DNA of 64,000 bases from Burkholderiaceae bacterium (GCA_039936235.1 JBDTIS010000141.1:1395-65394), one strand, 5' to 3'. Shown: positions 1 through 27,123, counted from the first letter of the stretch. The notes: generated by a model not told the origin, from the letters alone. Numbers and translations: made by a program.

Positions 1-30
1 GGACTGTGGCGCTCCGCGCCGGCGTGACGC

Positions 31-678
31 TCAGGACGTCAGTTGCCGGATGAACGCCGGCGCGACGTCGCGGTCGATCGCGCCGCCGATCAGCGCGGCG
101 ATCTCGACGTCGCTCCGGCCCACTTTCCTGAGCTGATCGATCTCGTCGCCGAGCAGCGCGATGAACGCCTGCGTCGACAAGGCTTCGGAACCGATCCCCA
201 TCGCGTTGCGCAGCGCGTCGCGCGCACGCGCCAGTTCCTCGGACGAGAAGGTCTGCGCTTCGGCCTCGGCCACGCGTCGTTCGCGCGTCGCCTTCGGTTG
301 CGCGAACAGTCGCGCGATCTCGTCGACCAGCACGTCCGTGTCGGTGGCCTTCGTCAGGAACAGGTCGTAGTCGTCGAAGCGTTCGCGGACCCAGTGTTCG
401 TCGAGTCCGGTGTGGATACCGATCAGAACGTCCGCGGTCCTTTCGTTGTCTCGCAGTACGCGCGCAACCTCGATGCCGCTCATCTCCGGCATCGAGATAT
501 CCATCAGCACCATGTCGAACGGCTTCGCCGCCGCGAGGTCCACGGCTTCGCGGCCGTGCTTGGCCGTGACGACGACGTGGCCCTCGTGTTCCAGCATCAG
601 CTTGAGCACTTCGAGGATCGCCCAGTCGTCTTCGACGATCAGAATGCGACGGCGGGGATCGCGTTGCTTGAAGACCAA
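31..678 (-). CDS. Response regulator: receiver domain plus ~90-aa unassigned C-terminal region
   Basis: The 215-aa ORF starts at TTG 678, the only in-frame start upstream of the REC core. Receiver motifs are RILIVEDD and DMVLMDISMPEMSG. The C-terminal tail has no His and no domain I recognise. It lies 20 nt downstream of the REC-kinase gene on the same strand. Confidence 0.85.
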   Translation of the reverse strand: MVFKQRDPRRRILIVEDDWAILEVLKLMLEHEGHVVVTAKHGREAVDLAAAKPFDMVLMDISMPEMSGIEVARVLRDNERTADVLIGIHTGLDEHWVRERFDDYDLFLTKATDTDVLVDEIARLFAQPKATRERRVAEAEAQTFSSEELARARDALRNAMGIGSEALSTQAFIALLGDEIDQLRKVGRSDVEIAALIGGAIDRDVAPAFIRQLTS

Positions 679-698
679 GGGGGCGCGGGCCTGCGAAG

Positions 699-1841
699 TC
701 AGACGTGAACGCTGGCTGCGGCGACGGCACTCGCAGCGCGCGGCAGCGTGACACGGAACGTGGTCTTCCGATCCGCGCCGCCTGAGAGGACCTCGACCCG
801 CCCGCCGTGCGCGCGCGCGATCTGGTCGACGATGTAAAGACCGAGCCCGAGACCGTCGCCGCGCGTGCGATGCTGGTCACGGCTGCGGAAGGGGTCGAAC
901 ACGTGCGGCAACACGTCGTCCGGGATGCAACCCGCGTTGCTGACGGCGAACGCGACCTCCGCATCGTCAGTCCCGTCGAGTTCGCATTCGATCTCGCAGT
1001 CGGCGCCACCGTGTTGCAGCGCGTTGCCGATCAGGTTCGACGCGATCTGGGCCAGTCGACCCGCGTCCCACTCGCCTCCGAGATTGCCATTGGTCCGCAA
1101 CGCGATCCGCCGCTCGGGCATCGAAGCACGCTGTTCGTCGACGGCATGTGCGATCAGTGCGCCGAGATCGACCGGCTGATGCCGGATCGGAATCCCTCCT
1201 GCGAGTCGCACGCGTGCCAGGTCGAGCATGTCGGAGATCATGTGGCTCATCAGCTTGGCGCTGGCGAGCGTGCGCGCCGCCGATCGGCGCGTCGTCTCGT
1301 CGGCAGCCTTCTTCTCGAGCAGGATGGAGCCCATCACGATCGCGCTGAGCGGTCCGCGCAGGTCGTGGCCGAGCATCGCGGTGAACATCTCCTGCAGCCG
1401 CAGCGTCTCGGTCTTCTCACGCAGCTCGCGCGCGAGCTGCAGCCGTTGCTGTGCGAGCTCGATGAACACGTCGACCTTGCTCTTGAGGATATGCGGATCG
1501 ATCGGTTTGAACAGGAAGTCGACCGCGCCGGTCTCGTAGCCCTTGAACACGCGTCGCTCGTCGCTCGCACCGGCCGTGACGAAGATGATCGGCACGGCGC
1601 GCGTACGCTCGCTGCCGCGCATCAACTCGGCGAGCTCGAAGCCGTCTAGCTCGGGCATCTGTACGTCGACGAGCGCGAGCGAGACGTGATGGATCAGCAG
1701 CAGTTCGAGCGCCTCGGCGCCCGAGCGGGCCTCGAGCAATTCGATGTCGTCGCGACGCAGCAGCGCCGACAGCGCGAGTAGGTTCTCGGGCAGATCGTCG
1801 ACCAGTAACAGCTTCACCGGGATCGCCGGATCGGGTTTCAT
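699..1841 (-). CDS. Response-regulator/histidine-kinase hybrid (REC-HisKA-HATPase)
   Basis: N-terminal receiver motifs are KLLLVDDLPENL, DVQMPELDG and FLFKP. These are followed by an H-box (MLGHDLRGPLSAI), an N-box (NLIGNALQHG) and a G-box (GDGLGLGLYIVDQIARAHGG). ATG 1841 overlaps the cheB stop as ATGA. Confidence 0.9.
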   Translation of the reverse strand: MKPDPAIPVKLLLVDDLPENLLALSALLRRDDIELLEARSGAEALELLLIHHVSLALVDVQMPELDGFELAELMRGSERTRAVPIIFVTAGASDERRVFKGYETGAVDFLFKPIDPHILKSKVDVFIELAQQRLQLARELREKTETLRLQEMFTAMLGHDLRGPLSAIVMGSILLEKKAADETTRRSAARTLASAKLMSHMISDMLDLARVRLAGGIPIRHQPVDLGALIAHAVDEQRASMPERRIALRTNGNLGGEWDAGRLAQIASNLIGNALQHGGADCEIECELDGTDDAEVAFAVSNAGCIPDDVLPHVFDPFRSRDQHRTRGDGLGLGLYIVDQIARAHGGRVEVLSGGADRKTTFRVTLPRAASAVAAASVHV

Positions 1842-2488
1842 GCATCGACCTTCGTGACGGTACTTCCATCGATGGTAAGCAGCAACGCGATGATCTCGTC
1901 GAGTGGAAGCACGAAGTTCGCCGCGATCCGCTTCAGCGCGGCGGCCGGCATCGCCGGGAACAGCGCCGTTTTCGGATCCTGCACGATCGCGATGCCGCCG
2001 GTGCGCTGAACGGCCGCGATTCCAGCCGCGCCGTCGTCGTTCGCACCCGTCAGGACGACGGCCGCGAGGCGCGCTCCGTAGACGTCGATCGCACTCTCGA
2101 AGAGGATGTCGATCGCCGGCCGCGAGTAGTTGACCGGCTCGTCGGCCGACAGCGCGAGGCTCGGACCCTTGTCCAGAAGAAGGTGGTAGTCCGGTGGTGC
2201 GAAGTAGATCGTGCCGATCTCCACGGGCAACTTGTCTTCCGCTTCGCGGACCGGCGCCGCGCAGCGCGCGCCGAACAGGGGCGCGAGCAGGCTCGGCCGC
2301 TCGCGCGGGAGGTGGATCACGATGAAGATCGGAACCGACAGTCGTCCGGGCAGCGCGGGCAGCATCCGCATCAGCGCCTCGATGCCGCCGGCCGACGCGC
2401 CGATCACGACCGCCGAGACGCGCCCCGCAAGCGTCGGTGCCTCGGTCATCGGTGCGCGGCCGTGCGCATGCGCCGCGGCCTCACGCAT
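1838..2488 (-). CDS. cheB: CheB-type protein-glutamate methylesterase, catalytic domain only (no receiver)
   Basis: The protein is 216 aa and carries VVIGASAGGIEAL (nucleophile Ser context), IFIVIHLP and YFAPPDYHLL. There is no N-terminal REC domain. ATG 2488 overlaps the cheR stop by 8 nt; an alternative ATG lies at 2449. Confidence 0.85.
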   Translation of the reverse strand: MREAAAHAHGRAPMTEAPTLAGRVSAVVIGASAGGIEALMRMLPALPGRLSVPIFIVIHLPRERPSLLAPLFGARCAAPVREAEDKLPVEIGTIYFAPPDYHLLLDKGPSLALSADEPVNYSRPAIDILFESAIDVYGARLAAVVLTGANDDGAAGIAAVQRTGGIAIVQDPKTALFPAMPAAALKRIAANFVLPLDEIIALLLTIDGSTVTKVDA

Positions 2489-3338
2489 CGGCCTTCTTCC
2501 GGTATATCCGGTCGCCGGCCACGAACGGATCGAACGCGTGGGCCTGGCTCGAGAATCGCAGCGACTCCTTCGAGCCGATGCCGAGGAAACCCTTGCGGCA
2601 CAAGGCTTCGTGGAACAGGCCGAGCGCGCGGTCCTGCAACTCGCGCGTGAAGTAGATCAGCACGTTGCGACACGACACCAGCTGCATCTCCGCGAACACG
2701 CTGTCGGTCGCGAGGCTGTGATCGGAGAACACGATCTGCTCGCGCAGCGTCTTGTCGAACACCGCACGGTCGTAGGCGGCCGTGTAGTAGTCCGACAGCG
2801 ACGTGTGCGCGCCGGACCTTCGATGATTCTCGGTGAAGCCGGCGATCCGGTCGATCGCGTAGATGCCGGCCTCGGCCTGCGCGAGGGCACGCGGATTGAT
2901 GTCGGTCGCATAGATCAGCGTGCGTTCGAGCAGCCCTTCCTCGCGCAACAGGATGGCGATCGAATAGGCCTCCTCGCCGGTGCTGCAGCCGGCGATCCAG
3001 ATCTTCAGCGACGGATAGGTGCGCAGCAGAGGCACGACCTTCTCGCGCAGCGCGAGGAAGTAGGCAGGGTCGCGGAACATCTCGCTGACCTGGACCGTCA
3101 GGTAGTCGAGCAGCGGCGGAAAGAAGGCCGGGTCGTGCAGCACGCGATCCTGCAGCTGCGACAACGTCTTGCAGCCGAAGCGTGTCATCGCGGTCGTCAG
3201 CCGACGCTTCAACGACGCGCCGGCGTAGTCGCGGAAGTCGTAGTGGTACTTCAGGAAGATCGCGTCGACGAGCAGCTGCAATTCGATGTCGAAGTCCCTG
3301 CTGGCCTCGGCGACGGTTGCCGGCGGGGTGGTGATCAC
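2481..3338 (-). CDS. cheR: CheR-type protein-glutamate O-methyltransferase
   Basis: Track ORF 2481..4442 is over-extended. CheR-like sequence begins near DFDIELQLLVDAIFLKYHYDFRDYA. The SAM-binding region is KIWIAGCSTGEEAYSIAILL, followed by CRNVLIYF. GTG 3338 forms a GTGA overlap with the stop of the upstream hybrid kinase. Confidence 0.9.
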   Translation of the reverse strand: MITTPPATVAEASRDFDIELQLLVDAIFLKYHYDFRDYAGASLKRRLTTAMTRFGCKTLSQLQDRVLHDPAFFPPLLDYLTVQVSEMFRDPAYFLALREKVVPLLRTYPSLKIWIAGCSTGEEAYSIAILLREEGLLERTLIYATDINPRALAQAEAGIYAIDRIAGFTENHRRSGAHTSLSDYYTAAYDRAVFDKTLREQIVFSDHSLATDSVFAEMQLVSCRNVLIYFTRELQDRALGLFHEALCRKGFLGIGSKESLRFSSQAHAFDPFVAGDRIYRKKADA

Positions 3339-6300
3339 TTCGGCATCCAGACGCGGACCAGCGACAGGAGCTTCTCGACGTCGAGCGGCTTCGCGACATA
3401 GTCGTTGGCGCCCGCCGCGAGGCATTTCTCCTGGTCGTCGCGCATCGCCTTGGCGGTCAGTGCGATGATCGGCAGCTTCTTCCAGCGCGGATCCTTGCGG
3501 ATCTGGCGCATCGCCGTGTACCCGTCCATCTCGGGCATCATGATGTCCATCAGGACCAGATCGATCGCGGCAGCCGGGTCGCCGACGGTCTTCGCGAGCG
3601 CCTCCAGCGCTTCGCGGCCGTTGCGGGCGATCTCGATCTTCAGGCCCTTCGGTTCGAGCACGCTCGTCAGCGCGAACACGTTGCGCACATCGTCCTCGAC
3701 GACCAGCACGCGCCGACCCTCGAAGGTGGACTCGCGGCTGCGTGCCTCGCGCAGCATCCGTTGCCGTTCCGGCGGCAGGTCGGCCTCGACCTGATGCAGG
3801 AACAGCGTGACCTCGTCGAGCAGGCGCTCCGGGGACCGCGCGTCCTTGATGATGATCGATCGCGAGTAGCGGCTCAGCCGCTGCTCTTCGCTTCGCGTGA
3901 GCAGTCGGCCCGTGTAGACGATCACCGGCGGGAACGCCACGTCGTCGTGCGCGGCCATCTTCTCGAGCAGGTCGTAGCCGGACAGGTCCGGCAGGTTCAG
4001 ATCCATCACCATGCAGTCGAAGGTCGCGCCCTGCAGATGCGCTAGCGCGTCCGACGCGCGCGACGCACCGACGATCTGCACGCCGTCGCTCTCGAGCAGC
4101 TGGCGGATGCTTTCGAGCTGGCGCGCGTCGTCCTCGACGACCAGCACGCGGCGCAGGTGCGGCGTGAAACGGGCGCGCAGGCCTTCGAGCGCTTCGACGA
4201 GCTGTTCGCGCTTGACCGGCTTCAGGTCGTAGCCGACGGCGCCGAGTTCGCGCGCCTCCTGGCGATAATCGGCGACCGACGCGACGTGAACCGGGATGTG
4301 CCGCGTATCCGGATCGCGCTTGAGCTGGTCGAGCACGCCGAGCCCGGAGTGGTCGGGCAGGTTCATGTCGAGCAGGATCGCGTTCGGCCGATAGGTCTTC
4401 GCGGCGGACAGACCGTCGCCGGCGCTGTGTGCGATGACGCACTGGAAGCCCATCTCGTGCGCCAGGTCCTGCAGGATCGCGGCGAAGCGCTTGTCGTCCT
4501 CGATCACGAGGATCAGCCGCGCATGCGGTGCGAGTCGATCGCGGTCGTCGCCGGTGACCGGCGGCAGCCCTGGCGCCTCGTTCGCCCGTGCCGGGACGAT
4601 GATCGTCGGCGGCGCTGACGGCGGGGGCGGCGCCACGAACGGCGTCGGGGGCAGTCGAGCCGGCTTCTCGCCGTCGGCGACGAACACGATCGGCAGCGTC
4701 AGCGTGAACACGCTGCCCTGTCCGGTCGTGCTCTGCACGACGACGTCGCCGCCGAGCAGCCGCGCCAGATCGCGAGAGATCGACAGGCCGAGCCCGGTCC
4801 CGCCGAAGCGACGATGGGTGCTGCCGTCGGCCTGACGGAAGGCCTCGAAGATCACTTCCTGTTCATGCGGCGCGATGCCGATGCCGCTGTCGCTGACAGC
4901 GATCGCGATCTTCCCGTCTTCGGGCGTGAAGACGCGCAGTCCGACTTCACCGCGGGCCGTGAACTTGAACGCGTTGGACAGCAGGTTGCGGACGACCTGG
5001 CCGATCCGCTGCGGATCGGTCTCGATGCGCAGCGGCGTGCCGGGCTCGACGGTCGCCGTGAACGCGAGACCCTTGTCGCGCGCGATCGGCTCGAACGTCA
5101 TCACGAGCGCTTCGACGATGCGATTGACCGGCACCGACTCGACGTCGATGTCGACCTTGCCGGCCTCGATCTTCGACAGGTCGAGGATGTCGTTGATCAG
5201 CGTCAGCAGATCGTTGCCCGCCGACAGGATGGTGTCGGCGAACTTGACCTGTTCGTCGGTGAGATTGCCGTGCTTGTTGTCGGCCAGCAGCTTCGACAGG
5301 ATCAGCGTCGAGTTCAGCGGCGTACGCAGCTCGTGGCTCATGTTGGCGAGGAATTCGCTCTTGTACTGGTTCGAACGCTCCAGTTCCTCGGCCTTGTCGA
5401 CCAGCACGTTCTGCGAACGGACCAGCGTCGCCTTCTGGTCCTCGAGCAACTGTGCCTGCTCTTCGAGTTGGGAATTGGTCTGCTCGAGTTCGGATTGCTG
5501 GCCCTCGAGCTGTGCCTGAGAGACCTTCAGCGCCTGGCCCTGTTCCTCGAGCTCCTCGTTGCTCACGCGCAACTCTTCCTGCTGCGCCTGCAACTCCTCG
5601 GCCTGCTGCTGTGTCTCGGCGAGCAGCGCGTCCACCCGGTCGCGTTCGCGCGAGCTCCGGATCGCGACCGCAACGACTTCGGAAATGCGTGCCAGCAGTT
5701 CCCGATCTTCGGCACCGACTTCGCGCAGGAAGGCGAACTCCATGATCGCCTGGAGCTGTCCGTCCACCGTCGCCGGTGCGACCAGCAGTTCGCGCGGCTG
5801 CCCGCGACCGAGCGACGAACGGATCTCCAGGTAATCGGCGGGCACCTTGCGGACGTGGATCACGTCGTTGTCCTTCGCGGCCTGGCCGACCAGCCCTTCA
5901 CCGATCGCCACCGATCGCGATTCGTCGGCGGACCCGTCGGCATAACCGGCGACGCGATGCAGGCGGCCGTCGCCTTCGGGCGCGTAGACCGTCGCATGCG
6001 GCACGTCGAGATAGCGGGCGAGGAAGGCCAGCGCTTTCGCGCACATCGCGTCCATTCGCCTCTCGCCGAGCAACTGTTCGGCGAGCCCCGAGACGCCGGC
6101 ACGCAACCAGCTCTCGATCTCGCGTTCGCGGTGGCCGCGCGCCAGAGCCCAGGCGGCGGTCGCGATCAACAACAGCAGAACCGTCGCTCCGATCATCGTG
6201 AAGCGGAAAGCGGCCCGCACTGCCGCATCGCTTTCGGCCTGCCGACTTGCCAGCACGCCGCGTTCGTCGGCCTGCATCTCGCCGATCAGCGCGCGGATGC

Positions 6301-6793
6301 TGTCCATCGTGACCTTGCCAAGATCGGTGCGAACGAGCGCCACCGCGCCGTCGATATCGCCAGAACGACGCAGCGTCACCGTATCGCGCAGCTCGGTCAG
6401 TTTGCTCTCGACCAGCGGCTCGAGCGCGGCGATCCGGGCCGCCTGCCGCGGGTTGTCGGCGGTGACGCTCCGCAACGAAGCGAGTTCGCCGGGCGCCGTC
6501 GTCTGGGCCGTCGTATAGCGTGCGAGATAGTTCTCGGTGCCGGTCAGCAGATAGCCGCGCTGTCCGGATTCGGCGTCCTTCATGTGATCGAGCAGCGTCT
6601 GCACGCGGGCGAGCACCTCCAGCGTGTGCGCCACGCTCTCCTCCGTGGCCTGGCTGCCGAGCATCGAGCGGTAGGCCAGCGCCGCGGAGACGGTCACGAC
6701 GATCGCCGCGATGACGAGGCCCCCGACAGTGCGCGCAGGAAGGTGAAAGCGCTTGCGGGCCACGGCGAAGGGAGCGGCTTGGGAATCGGGCAT
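3335..6793 (-). CDS. Hybrid sensor histidine kinase: TM-CHASE3-like-TM, GAF-like, long coiled coil, HisKA, HATPase, three receiver domains
   Basis: I place the start at ATG 6793; the track ORF runs on to 6925 through an Arg/Pro-rich stretch. Two TM segments bracket a ~170-aa region with CHASE3-like sequence (ESGQRGYLLTG). Downstream are a GAF-like block, a Q/E-rich coil, an H-box (MSHELRTPLNS) and HATPase motifs (NLLSNAFKFT, GGTGLGLSISRDLARLLGG). Three REC domains follow (LILVIEDD, VLVVEDDARQ, VLVVEDDVRN). Confidence 0.9.
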   Translation of the reverse strand: MPDSQAAPFAVARKRFHLPARTVGGLVIAAIVVTVSAALAYRSMLGSQATEESVAHTLEVLARVQTLLDHMKDAESGQRGYLLTGTENYLARYTTAQTTAPGELASLRSVTADNPRQAARIAALEPLVESKLTELRDTVTLRRSGDIDGAVALVRTDLGKVTMDSIRALIGEMQADERGVLASRQAESDAAVRAAFRFTMIGATVLLLLIATAAWALARGHREREIESWLRAGVSGLAEQLLGERRMDAMCAKALAFLARYLDVPHATVYAPEGDGRLHRVAGYADGSADESRSVAIGEGLVGQAAKDNDVIHVRKVPADYLEIRSSLGRGQPRELLVAPATVDGQLQAIMEFAFLREVGAEDRELLARISEVVAVAIRSSRERDRVDALLAETQQQAEELQAQQEELRVSNEELEEQGQALKVSQAQLEGQQSELEQTNSQLEEQAQLLEDQKATLVRSQNVLVDKAEELERSNQYKSEFLANMSHELRTPLNSTLILSKLLADNKHGNLTDEQVKFADTILSAGNDLLTLINDILDLSKIEAGKVDIDVESVPVNRIVEALVMTFEPIARDKGLAFTATVEPGTPLRIETDPQRIGQVVRNLLSNAFKFTARGEVGLRVFTPEDGKIAIAVSDSGIGIAPHEQEVIFEAFRQADGSTHRRFGGTGLGLSISRDLARLLGGDVVVQSTTGQGSVFTLTLPIVFVADGEKPARLPPTPFVAPPPPSAPPTIIVPARANEAPGLPPVTGDDRDRLAPHARLILVIEDDKRFAAILQDLAHEMGFQCVIAHSAGDGLSAAKTYRPNAILLDMNLPDHSGLGVLDQLKRDPDTRHIPVHVASVADYRQEARELGAVGYDLKPVKREQLVEALEGLRARFTPHLRRVLVVEDDARQLESIRQLLESDGVQIVGASRASDALAHLQGATFDCMVMDLNLPDLSGYDLLEKMAAHDDVAFPPVIVYTGRLLTRSEEQRLSRYSRSIIIKDARSPERLLDEVTLFLHQVEADLPPERQRMLREARSRESTFEGRRVLVVEDDVRNVFALTSVLEPKGLKIEIARNGREALEALAKTVGDPAAAIDLVLMDIMMPEMDGYTAMRQIRKDPRWKKLPIIALTAKAMRDDQEKCLAAGANDYVAKPLDVEKLLSLVRVWMPK

Positions 6794-7018
6794 GGGATGG
6801 TTCGATCGAGCGGACGCGGCCGCGCCTCGGCCGGGGCGCCTGAGGGGCCGTGCATGATAAACGGCGCGCGGCGGCGGGTCGTGGGAGCGCGCCTGATCCG
6901 GAAGCGTCCGACGCAGGGTTCGCAAAAATACGACGGGCGGTCAGACGCGTCGGCCCCGATCGCCCCAGGCCGGGCCTTGCGCACACCGATCAATGCGCTC
7001 GGCGCTTCGGAGCGGGCC

Positions 7019-7723
7019 CTAGGCGGTTCTTTCGTCGGTCCGAACCGTCAGGATCGGCGGCGCCGTGATGCGCCCGCCGTCGATGTGAAAAGCCTCGTCG
7101 GCAAAACGCGCGAGGTCGGCCGGGTCGTGCGTGATCATCACCATCGGCAGGTCGACGTCGCGCAGCAGCGCATCGAGCTCGTCGCGCATCCGCTCGCGCA
7201 GTGCCGGATCGAGCGCCGAGAACGGTTCGTCGAGCAGCAGCGCGCGTGGCCCGTTGACGAGCGCACGGGCCAGGGCGGTCCGCTGACGCTGGCCGCCCGA
7301 CAGTTCGCGCGGCGCCTGGTCGGCGACGTCGAGCAGCTCGAACGCGCGCAACCAGCGCAGGACCGGTTCGGTGTCGACACGGGCCGATGGATTGCGCAGG
7401 CCGGTGGACAGCCCGAACGCGACGTTCTGGCGCACGCTCAGCTTCGGGAACAGCGCGTAGTCCTGGAACAGATAGCCGAAGCCGCGATCGCGGGCCGGCA
7501 CGTCGATGCCGGCCGCGCCGTCGAACAGGACATCGTCGTCGAACGCGATGCGGCCGCGGTCGGGCGTGCGCAGTCCGGCGACCGCCTGCAGCAAGACCGT
7601 CTTACCGGCGCCGGAAGGGCCGTAGAGCACCGTACGCTTCGTCGTCGTGCAAAACTGCACGCACAATTCGAACGTGCGCGACACGCTCTTCAATCGCTGC
7701 GTGATGTCGACGTGGAGGGTCAC
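7019..7723 (-). CDS. modC: Molybdate ABC transporter ATP-binding protein, short form without C-terminal TOBE/Mop domain
   Basis: The start is GTG 7723 with a GGAG about 8 nt upstream. Motifs are Walker A (GPSGAGKT), signature (LSGGQRQR) and Walker B (LLLDEP). The protein is only 234 aa. It lies 19 nt downstream of modB. Confidence 0.8.
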   Translation of the reverse strand: MTLHVDITQRLKSVSRTFELCVQFCTTTKRTVLYGPSGAGKTVLLQAVAGLRTPDRGRIAFDDDVLFDGAAGIDVPARDRGFGYLFQDYALFPKLSVRQNVAFGLSTGLRNPSARVDTEPVLRWLRAFELLDVADQAPRELSGGQRQRTALARALVNGPRALLLDEPFSALDPALRERMRDELDALLRDVDLPMVMITHDPADLARFADEAFHIDGGRITAPPILTVRTDERTA

Positions 7724-26868: not shown

Positions 26869-27123
26869 GTGTCTGAACCCACCATCGATGCCGCGACCTT
26901 CGACGCACTGAAGGACCTGCCCGGCGACGAATTCGTCGACGAGCTGGTCGGCTTTTTTTCTCGAAGAGGCGCCCGACATGATCGGGGATCTCCCCGCATC
27001 GCTGACGACCGGCGACGCGTTCGGCTTCCGTCGCGCCGCGCGCTCGCCGACGATCTGGCGACCGAGGTGATCGGGGCAGTCGTGTTTCCGGGCAAGACGA
27101 TCGCCCGTTCGAGCGCACGATGA
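26869..27123 (+). pseudogene. Decayed Hpt (histidine phosphotransfer) domain gene
   Basis: The GTG-started ORF begins IDAATFDALKDLPGDEFVDELVGFF, then loses similarity at a T7 run (26953-26959). Removing one T restores LEEAPDMIGDLPASLTTGDAFGFRRAARS. In that reading the usual phospho-His position is Arg, and a stop follows 10 codons later. Confidence 0.5.

Follow-up and report, generated by a model that had tools for sequence, protein, structure and literature searches.

CheR and a receiver-less CheB in a cfcABCDE-type cassette: probable tuning of a CHASE3/GAF hybrid kinase through a Glu-Glu-Leu signalling helix

The window analysed here is a stretch of 64,000 nucleotides from a Burkholderiaceae bacterium (GCA_039936235.1, JBDTIS010000141.1:1395-65394), and the system in question is a cassette of five minus-strand open reading frames (ORFs) at 31-6793. 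In transcription order these encode a hybrid sensor kinase (HK1), a CheR-type methyltransferase, a CheB methylesterase, a receiver-kinase protein (gene D), and a small receiver protein (gene E) (Table 1). A sequence-only reading had described five same-strand genes with this domain order, and our ORF coordinates and Pfam assignments agree with it. The cassette is of the kind known as cfcABCDE in Pseudomonas putida and is related to RsbK-RsbM in Bacillus cereus. We consider it probable that CheR and CheB act to tune HK1, by way of a helix built of Glu-Glu-Leu heptads, rather than a chemoreceptor. The cassette type has already been named and is widespread, and the window holds an ordinary member of this family with a lineage-specific fifth gene.

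Table 1. Genes and domains of the cassette; positions are nucleotides of the window, and ORF coordinates are in brackets
Feature	Position	Strand	Protein or residues	Basis
HK1, CfcA/RsbK-type hybrid sensor kinase; order transmembrane segment, periplasmic CHASE3, transmembrane segment, GAF, Glx-rich signalling helix, HisKA, HATPase, three receivers	3335..6793 (3338-6793)	-	1152 aa	Pfam
CHASE3 periplasmic sensor domain of HK1	6233..6643	-	aa 51-187	Pfam PF05227, 148 bits, 1.8e-43
GAF domain of HK1	5660..6061	-	aa 245-378	Pfam GAF_2 and GAF
Signalling helix of HK1, proposed methyl-accepting segment	5444..5623	-	aa 391-450	Heptad pattern and conservation
HisKA dimerisation/phosphoacceptor domain of HK1	5159..5362	-	aa 478-545	Pfam
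HATPase_c catalytic domain of HK1	4688..5017	-	aa 593-702	Pfam
Three receivers of HK1	3356..4525	-	aa ~757-1146	Pfam, three Response_reg stretches ending at 1146
CheR-type protein-glutamate O-methyltransferase, CfcB/RsbM-like	2481..3338 (2484-3338)	-	285 aa	Pfam
Receiver-less CheB methylesterase, CfcC-like	1838..2488 (1841-2488)	-	216 aa or 203 aa	Pfam
Gene D, REC-HisKA-HATPase relay kinase, CfcD-like	699..1841 (702-1841)	-	380 aa	Pfam
Gene E, receiver and tail, CfcE position	31..678 (34-678)	-	215 aa	Pfam REC aa 12-121, Asp60

As read from the sequence, HK1 and cheR overlap by GTGA (3335-3338), cheR and cheB by the 8 nt ATGCGTGA (2481-2488), and cheB and gene D by ATGA (1838-1841), and a 20-nt gap (679-698) after gene D leads to the TTG start of gene E. 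The pattern of three overlaps and one gap described earlier stands in this form, except that the 8-nt overlap holds only with the first cheB ATG. This start is ambiguous: the gene caller picks the second ATG (203 aa), which gives a 31-nt gap, and the purine-rich stretch upstream is better for the first (216 aa). In gene E, TTG is the sole start that retains the acidic pocket of the receiver. HK1 starts with the ATG at 6793, its stop falls within the GTGA overlap, and a 225-nt spacer separates it from its upstream neighbour. On the downstream side gene E faces a convergent cupin gene, implying that the operon ends at gene E. A promoter and terminator scan of positions 1-7200 gave no signal over the shuffled background. 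NCBIfam assigned none of the five proteins to a specific family; they matched generic kinase and regulator models only, below their cut-offs.

In alignments, all five receivers (three in HK1 and one each in D and E) keep the acidic pair, the phosphoacceptor Asp, the Thr/Ser, and the Lys, and the H-box His is kept in both kinases. In HK1 this residue is His487 (nt 5333-5335), within the motif FLANMSHELR, every position of which is at least 98% conserved in the alignment described below; the H-box of gene D reads MLGHDLRGP. The phosphoacceptors of the three HK1 receivers are Asp809, Asp931, and Asp1083. Hydrophobic stretches lie on either side of the CHASE3 domain of HK1 (approximately aa 22-42 and 199-218), and Pfam found no HAMP domain at aa 188-244.

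The signalling helix of HK1 consists of eight heptads. Leu recurs at one of the core positions (401, 408 ... 450), and the other is Asn, Gln, or Ser. Glu-Glu fills the two positions that precede Leu, and three strict EEL heptads occupy aa 399-415 (nt 5549-5599). We aligned the window protein with 65 orthologues (66 sequences), most of which are 1144-1296 aa long. Mean column identity was 0.49 in CHASE3, 0.54 in GAF, 0.74 in the segment aa 379-477, 0.74 in HATPase, and 0.87 in HisKA; apart from the catalytic core, no part of HK1 is as well conserved as the helix. E406, E407, L408, N412, E413, L415, Q433, and N440 are invariant, position 414 is Glu in 65 of the 66 sequences, and the helix sequence is the same from Acidobacteriota to Verrucomicrobiota. 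Invariant Glu, Gln, and Asn residues on the surface of a predicted coiled coil argue for recognition by a partner. We also considered Glu/Gln exchange as a possible signature of CheB deamidation sites and rejected it: the invariant Glu pairs show no exchange, and the mixed Glu/Gln columns at 388, 417, 438, 448, and 472 are not decisive.

The repeat itself tracks CheB. In a six-frame scan of the genome to which the window belongs, three heptad-spaced (E/Q)EL motifs occurred once, in HK1. The corresponding DNA pattern gave 31 loci among 41 related genomes, and a reversed-pattern control gave none. When all CheB matches in these 41 genomes are taken into account, 27 of the 31 repeat loci lie within 4 kb of a CheB match on the same strand. 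Two more are the missing halves of cassettes broken by contig ends. Another (L106) is an HK1-type kinase followed by a CheR remnant and a REC-kinase, in a genome that has CheR-CheB elsewhere, and one (L105) has neither CheR nor CheB nearby. Apart from this last paralogue, the repeat had no matches in genomes without CheB or with only the receiver-bearing chemotaxis CheB. In L106 (G020:C16:47000-65000) only CheR residues 219-285 (~67) remain between the two kinases; L107 (G020:C53:178000-192000), in the same genome, has full CheR-CheB-REC-kinase genes and no HK1-type kinase within about 7.8 kb upstream.

Fourteen of the 27 CheB-adjoining repeat loci encode large single proteins of the order CheB-CheR-coiled coil-PAS-kinase-receiver, a kind named 'signal transduction kinase with CheB and CheR activity'. 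In these fusions N-E-E-L heptads follow directly after CheR in the same register as in HK1, so that this repeat is linked to a receiver-less CheB and a CheR in two architectures. The likeness extends to the pairing of both enzymes with a histidine kinase instead of a methyl-accepting chemotaxis protein (MCP). The fusions differ from the cassette in being one polypeptide, in having the repeat between CheR and PAS rather than at the H-box, and in lacking CHASE3 and GAF. Fusions of 1370-1490 aa occur in relatives at genus and order level, for example L100:4292-8449 (+), which ends in a receiver, and L103:2152-6270 (-); others are in G012, G005, G004, G001, G010, G030, G034, and G040, and none is in the genome of the window.

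In the textbook account chemoreceptors adapt by reversible methylation, and Pfam profiles confirmed that both enzymes of this mechanism are present in the cassette, as had been proposed. CheR (PF01739/PF03705) has an all-helical N-terminal CheR_N domain (42.8 bits) and an S-adenosylmethionine (SAM)-binding CheR domain (134.4 bits, 4.5e-39), both above cut-off. Against the equivalog for the E. coli-type CheR it scored 63.5 bits, where the cut-off is 435, implying that it belongs to a distinct subfamily. CheB is a single CheB_methylest domain (PF01339, aa 27-202, 188 bits, 1.1e-55) without a receiver. Its homologues number more than 6000, and all 120 matches listed are proteins of 194-237 aa with this one domain. 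Three residues, Ser32 (in a GASAGG motif), His59, and Asp152, do not vary among 26 homologues; they presumably correspond to the Ser-His-Asp catalytic triad of Salmonella CheB.

Trees of the catalytic domains separated the cassette enzymes from those of chemotaxis. These were quick searches on a subsample with midpoint rooting only. Cassette CheB forms one group (98 in the Shimodaira-Hasegawa-like approximate likelihood ratio test, SH-aLRT), chemotaxis CheB another (98), and fused-kinase CheB a third (97), and the cassette and fused-kinase groups share one side of a branch supported at 98. Likewise, cassette CheR forms one group (SH-aLRT 100) apart from chemotaxis CheR (97). Both cassette enzymes are nearer to those of the fused kinases than to those of chemotaxis. 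Phyla are intermingled in the cassette tree, as lateral transfer would produce. L118 (G034:C3) and L119:3344-4663 (-) belong to a small group that is sister to cassette CheB; L119 is a 439-aa ORF in which the only Pfam domain is the esterase (104-276).

The cassette is common, occurring in hundreds of species. A scan with the window's CheB as query and one genome per species found at least 583 loci, of which the best 80 were examined. These 80 species-level loci come from Pseudomonadota, Myxococcota, Acidobacteriota, Planctomycetota, Verrucomicrobiota, and Bdellovibrionota; the proteobacterial ones span Beta-, Gamma-, and Alphaproteobacteria and include Pseudomonas, Herbaspirillum, Acidovorax, Rhizobium, Brucella, sphingomonads, and Caulobacterales. 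In all sufficiently flanked loci but two, which are orphan copies in Cystobacter fuscus, the order and spacing from CHASE3 and GAF through the linker, kinase core, and receivers to CheR and CheB are those of the window, and the cheR-then-cheB order is kept in 78 of 80. In 74 of 80 loci, CheB is directly followed by a receiver that shares 58-90% identity with the gene D receiver. The kinase core attached to this receiver varies, being HisKA/HATPase in Pseudomonas, REC-kinase-REC in Brucella, and HWE-type in Rhizobiales. Thus, the kinase-CheR-CheB-REC-kinase core is syntenic across phyla in the loci examined, and conservation of the neighbourhood, which the sequence-only reading had put forward as a check, is borne out.

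Several individual loci deserve mention. In L083 (NZ_CP177351.1) the entire cassette lies on a 1.54-Mb Rhizobium plasmid. The two Cystobacter fuscus copies (L027, L075) are orphan cassette-type CheB genes, each a 258-aa ORF with the esterase domain only. The neighbours are a gene for a large CARDB-repeat protein on one side and one for a solute-binding protein on the other, and the vicinity contains neither CheR nor a kinase. L097 (OZ240079.1, 7.1 Mb, titled Leclercia tamurae) is 91-93% identical in DNA sequence over 16 kb to Pseudomonas thivervalensis (L086), and its title is probably not the true organism of this chromosome.

Because the receiver-kinase follows CheB widely and the fifth gene differs, we regard the conserved unit as four genes. 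In Pseudomonas the fifth gene encodes a 132-aa receiver, in the window a receiver with a tail. This tail (~90 aa, window 31-312) had no Pfam match even at E<=10 and no match in the ESM Atlas, and a collection of 5.8 billion proteins contained it in no more than 10, each of them a receiver 212-243 aa long. AlphaFold2 predicts five helices in a helical bundle of moderate confidence (block-mean predicted local distance difference test values of ~50-83). By this distribution the tail is a local addition confined to a narrow lineage. Its end carries conserved DQLR..., EIAALI, and AIDRD motifs and possibly resembles a helix-turn-helix.

The closest named counterpart is the cfcABCDE operon of P. putida KT2440 (PP_3761-PP_3757), in which genes for a CHASE3/GAF hybrid kinase, CheR3, CheB, and a REC protein are followed by a fifth gene (PMC4951495; PMC8175716). 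The order of the five genes is the same, from hybrid kinase through CheR, CheB, and REC-kinase to a small regulator. Syntenic loci from Pseudomonas other than KT2440 encode a CheB 51-54% and a CheR 62-66% identical to those of the window; gene D is REC-HisKA-HATPase, gene E is the 132-aa receiver noted above (L086), and the enzymes fall in the window's CheB and CheR tree groups. The H-box His of the Pseudomonas HK1 orthologues is at 496-503, where the window has His487, and the reported phosphoacceptor of CfcA is H496 (PMC4951495). CfcA drives the cyclic di-GMP (c-di-GMP) regulator CfcR (REC-GGDEF-EAL), raising c-di-GMP, and is proposed to feed both CfcR and CfcD (PMC4951495). BmsA, the CfcA orthologue of P. 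alkylphenolica, has the same neighbours and affects biofilm and motility, according to work cited in PMC8175716. The window differs from cfcABCDE in the extra ~90-aa helical tail of gene E and in its host, an uncultured, Burkholderiales-like bacterium with no FlhA match and a single PilJ receptor.

The second counterpart, RsbK of B. cereus, is a CHASE3-HAMP-GAF-S-helix-HisKA-HATPase-REC protein whose S-helix is methylated in vitro, with 14C-SAM, by RsbM, a CheR-type enzyme encoded beside it (PMC4574943). This methylation matters in vivo, where it prevents activation of the sigma-B pathway, and an esterase paired with RsbM is absent from B. cereus (PMC4574943; PMC12848376). By published description, the two systems have in common the CHASE3, GAF, helix, kinase, and REC parts and the adjoining CheR-type gene. 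They differ in that RsbM is unpaired and the window has a dedicated receiver-less CheB, so that the methyl mark should be reversible here. RsbK has one receiver and HK1 three, with no HAMP domain by Pfam; moreover, the B. cereus output runs through the REC-PP2C protein RsbY to sigma-B, whereas the downstream genes in the window encode a REC-kinase and a REC protein and neither has a PP2C domain. Taken together, the published CfcR output of cfcABCDE, the BmsA phenotype, and the S-helix methylation in B. cereus contradict the earlier statement that neither mechanism nor output had been defined for this type of cluster.

Canonical MCP-CheA-CheW adaptation uses the same two enzyme families, and the expected chemistry, reversible methylation of Glu on a coiled coil, is the same. 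By contrast, the window cassette contains no MCP, CheA, or CheW, its CheB has no receiver, its enzymes belong to separate lineages, and the HK1 helix does not match the MCP site consensus. For gene D there is a further parallel in the Che3 cascade of Rhodospirillum centenum, where CheS3 shares its REC-kinase architecture (PMC3868531).

Could the pair nevertheless serve a chemoreceptor encoded elsewhere? The genome assembly of the window (3.95 Mb, 245 contigs, 92.7% complete; the window is on contig C141) has no FlhA match, other flagellar genes not having been searched for. Its one MCP is a 709-aa protein with a PilJ N-terminal domain (L007, G000:C70:14000-33000), encoded on contig C70 beside a 1936-aa ChpA-like kinase (three Hpt, CheW, and receiver domains) and a CheW-like gene. 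The label MCP-less given by the sequence-only reading is therefore right for the window, whose contig region has no MCP, CheA, or CheW, and not for the genome. ChpA is followed by a 693-aa ORF to which Pfam assigns no domain. The pilJ and chpA genes are immediate neighbours, implying a type IV pilus Pil-Chp system without PilK and ChpB, and the cassette CheB and CheR are the sole matches to their families in the assembly. The pair might then modify PilJ, as PilK and ChpB methylate and demethylate it in P. aeruginosa (PMC12129077), with the operon linkage to HK1 serving only to co-regulate expression. We judge this very unlikely. Among 14 genomes of the window's genus, all 14 have one PilJ-like MCP and 11 a cassette-type CheB; the other three, which are 98, 99, and 93% complete, have no CheB of any kind, implying that PilJ works without the pair. 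Across phyla, moreover, the pair is syntenic with the CHASE3 kinase whatever the number of MCPs, which ranged from 0 to more than 50 matches in 50 cassette-bearing genomes of a wider survey, and it stands phylogenetically apart from the MCP-linked enzymes sampled. Two cassette-bearing genomes had no match to MCPsignal or CheW: Brucella haematophila CCUG 38531, an isolate with an intact 1165-aa HK1 orthologue whose cassette CheB is its only CheB, and an Acidobacteriota metagenome-assembled genome with both the cassette and a fused kinase, the repeat being present in each. With PilJ in 14 of 14 genus genomes, CheB absent from three of them, and two carriers without an MCP match, we found no co-variation of the pair with an MCP/CheA/CheW set.

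A somewhat better candidate, still improbable in our view, is that the pair modifies another protein of the cassette or the cell in place of the HK1 helix, such as the REC-kinase D or a receiver. The gene D receiver is better conserved across phyla than its kinase part; Salmonella CheR is reported to methylate the response regulator PhoP at Glu/Asp pairs (PMC8546571); and L107 keeps CheR-CheB-REC-kinase without HK1. However, the genome of L107 has a repeat-bearing HK1-type kinase elsewhere (L106), neither D nor E contains a Glx-rich repeat, the repeat that tracks CheB is in HK1 and the fused kinases, and the B. cereus precedent places the modification on a kinase helix. That cheR and cheB are inactive leftovers of a chemosensory cluster, with no present enzymatic role, is scarcely credible, even though P. 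putida cfc mutants other than cfcA, including those in cfcB and cfcC, kept the CfcR-dependent crinkle phenotype (an unpublished remark in PMC4951495, where a chemotaxis role for CfcB and CfcC is given as excluded on the strength of a citation). CheR is 61-89% identical among the loci with a full CheR, and CheB 48-70% identical across phyla; the presumed catalytic triad is invariant, the overlapping start and stop codons are kept, and where the genes have been lost only a remnant is left. Judged from these sequences, this is the pattern of genes under strong selection.

Modification of the HK1 helix thus remains the reading that we prefer, and a number of observations weigh against it. L105 (G016:C171:1-9000) is a GAF-helix-kinase-three-receiver paralogue that keeps the QEL/EEL/NEEL helix without adjoining CheR or CheB, in a genome whose only CheB is of the receiver-bearing kind. 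Searches of the five proteins with the MCP consensus small-small-x-x-Glx-Glx-x-x-small-small, and with a looser form, gave no meaningful match. The invariant Glu pairs of the helix never exchange Glu for Gln, an exchange common at MCP sites, and the Brucella HK1 orthologue has Lys at 414. Conservation of the helix may reflect signal transmission alone. Methyl transfer has been demonstrated only for RsbM/RsbK of B. cereus, and the likeness of the cassette to that pair is drawn from published descriptions. The P. putida mutant remark implies that the pair is not required for signalling as such. Finally, no free Hpt protein to serve a three-receiver relay was found in the genome of the window, where the Hpt domains are confined to ChpA and to a single ORF of 1185 aa on a different contig; positions 26869-27123 of the window, earlier called a decayed Hpt, had no match in the Hpt family search (E<=0.01). 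The interpretation given in the sequence-only reading is supported in part. Its central proposal, a two-component relay that incorporates methylation and has a kinase as the enzymes' substrate, agrees with all the indirect evidence gathered and has a direct experimental precedent in B. cereus.

If CheR and CheB do act on HK1, we envisage the following mechanism. HK1 would sense through its periplasmic CHASE3 and cytoplasmic GAF domains and pass the signal along a dimeric coiled-coil helix to HisKA/HATPase. CheR would methylate Glu residues in the Glu-Glu-Leu heptads of this helix, and the receiver-less CheB would remove the methyl groups. The level of methylation would set the on/off bias of HK1 or permit adaptation, and by the B. 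cereus precedent methylation may shift the kinase towards its off state. Lacking a receiver, CheB is probably not switched by phosphorylation. In E. coli and Salmonella the catalytic domain of CheB, when free, needs no phosphorylation for its activity; control would therefore come from helix conformation or from a receiver in trans, and feedback might arise if the conformation of the helix selects the acting enzyme or if some receiver acts in this way. Phosphate from His487 would pass to the three receivers of HK1 and to that of gene D, as suggested by conservation and by the CfcA-CfcR pair. Since no free Hpt was found, direct His-to-Asp transfer to D is favoured over a four-step relay. Gene D, as a second kinase like CheS3, may serve regulator E or an unlinked regulator. 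The residues singled out by this scheme are HK1 Glu399/400, 406/407, and 413/414 and their CfcA equivalents.

The heptad repeat also marks a second, fused kinase family. We raise the broader idea, for which we see the arguments as evenly balanced, that CHASE3-GAF (Cfc/RsbK-type) kinases and CheB-CheR-PAS fusions share one general methyl-accepting module, the (N/Q/S)-E-E-L heptad zipper, which would work independently of MCPs. The cassette binds the enzymes of chemoreceptor adaptation to a conventional sensor kinase across many phyla, and the same cassette type controls c-di-GMP and biofilm in Pseudomonas. If the broader idea is true, a dedicated CheR and a receiver-less CheB would give ordinary two-component kinases reversible control of their set point, or true adaptation, without feedback from CheA, and thousands of histidine kinases across at least seven phyla would adapt as chemoreceptors do.

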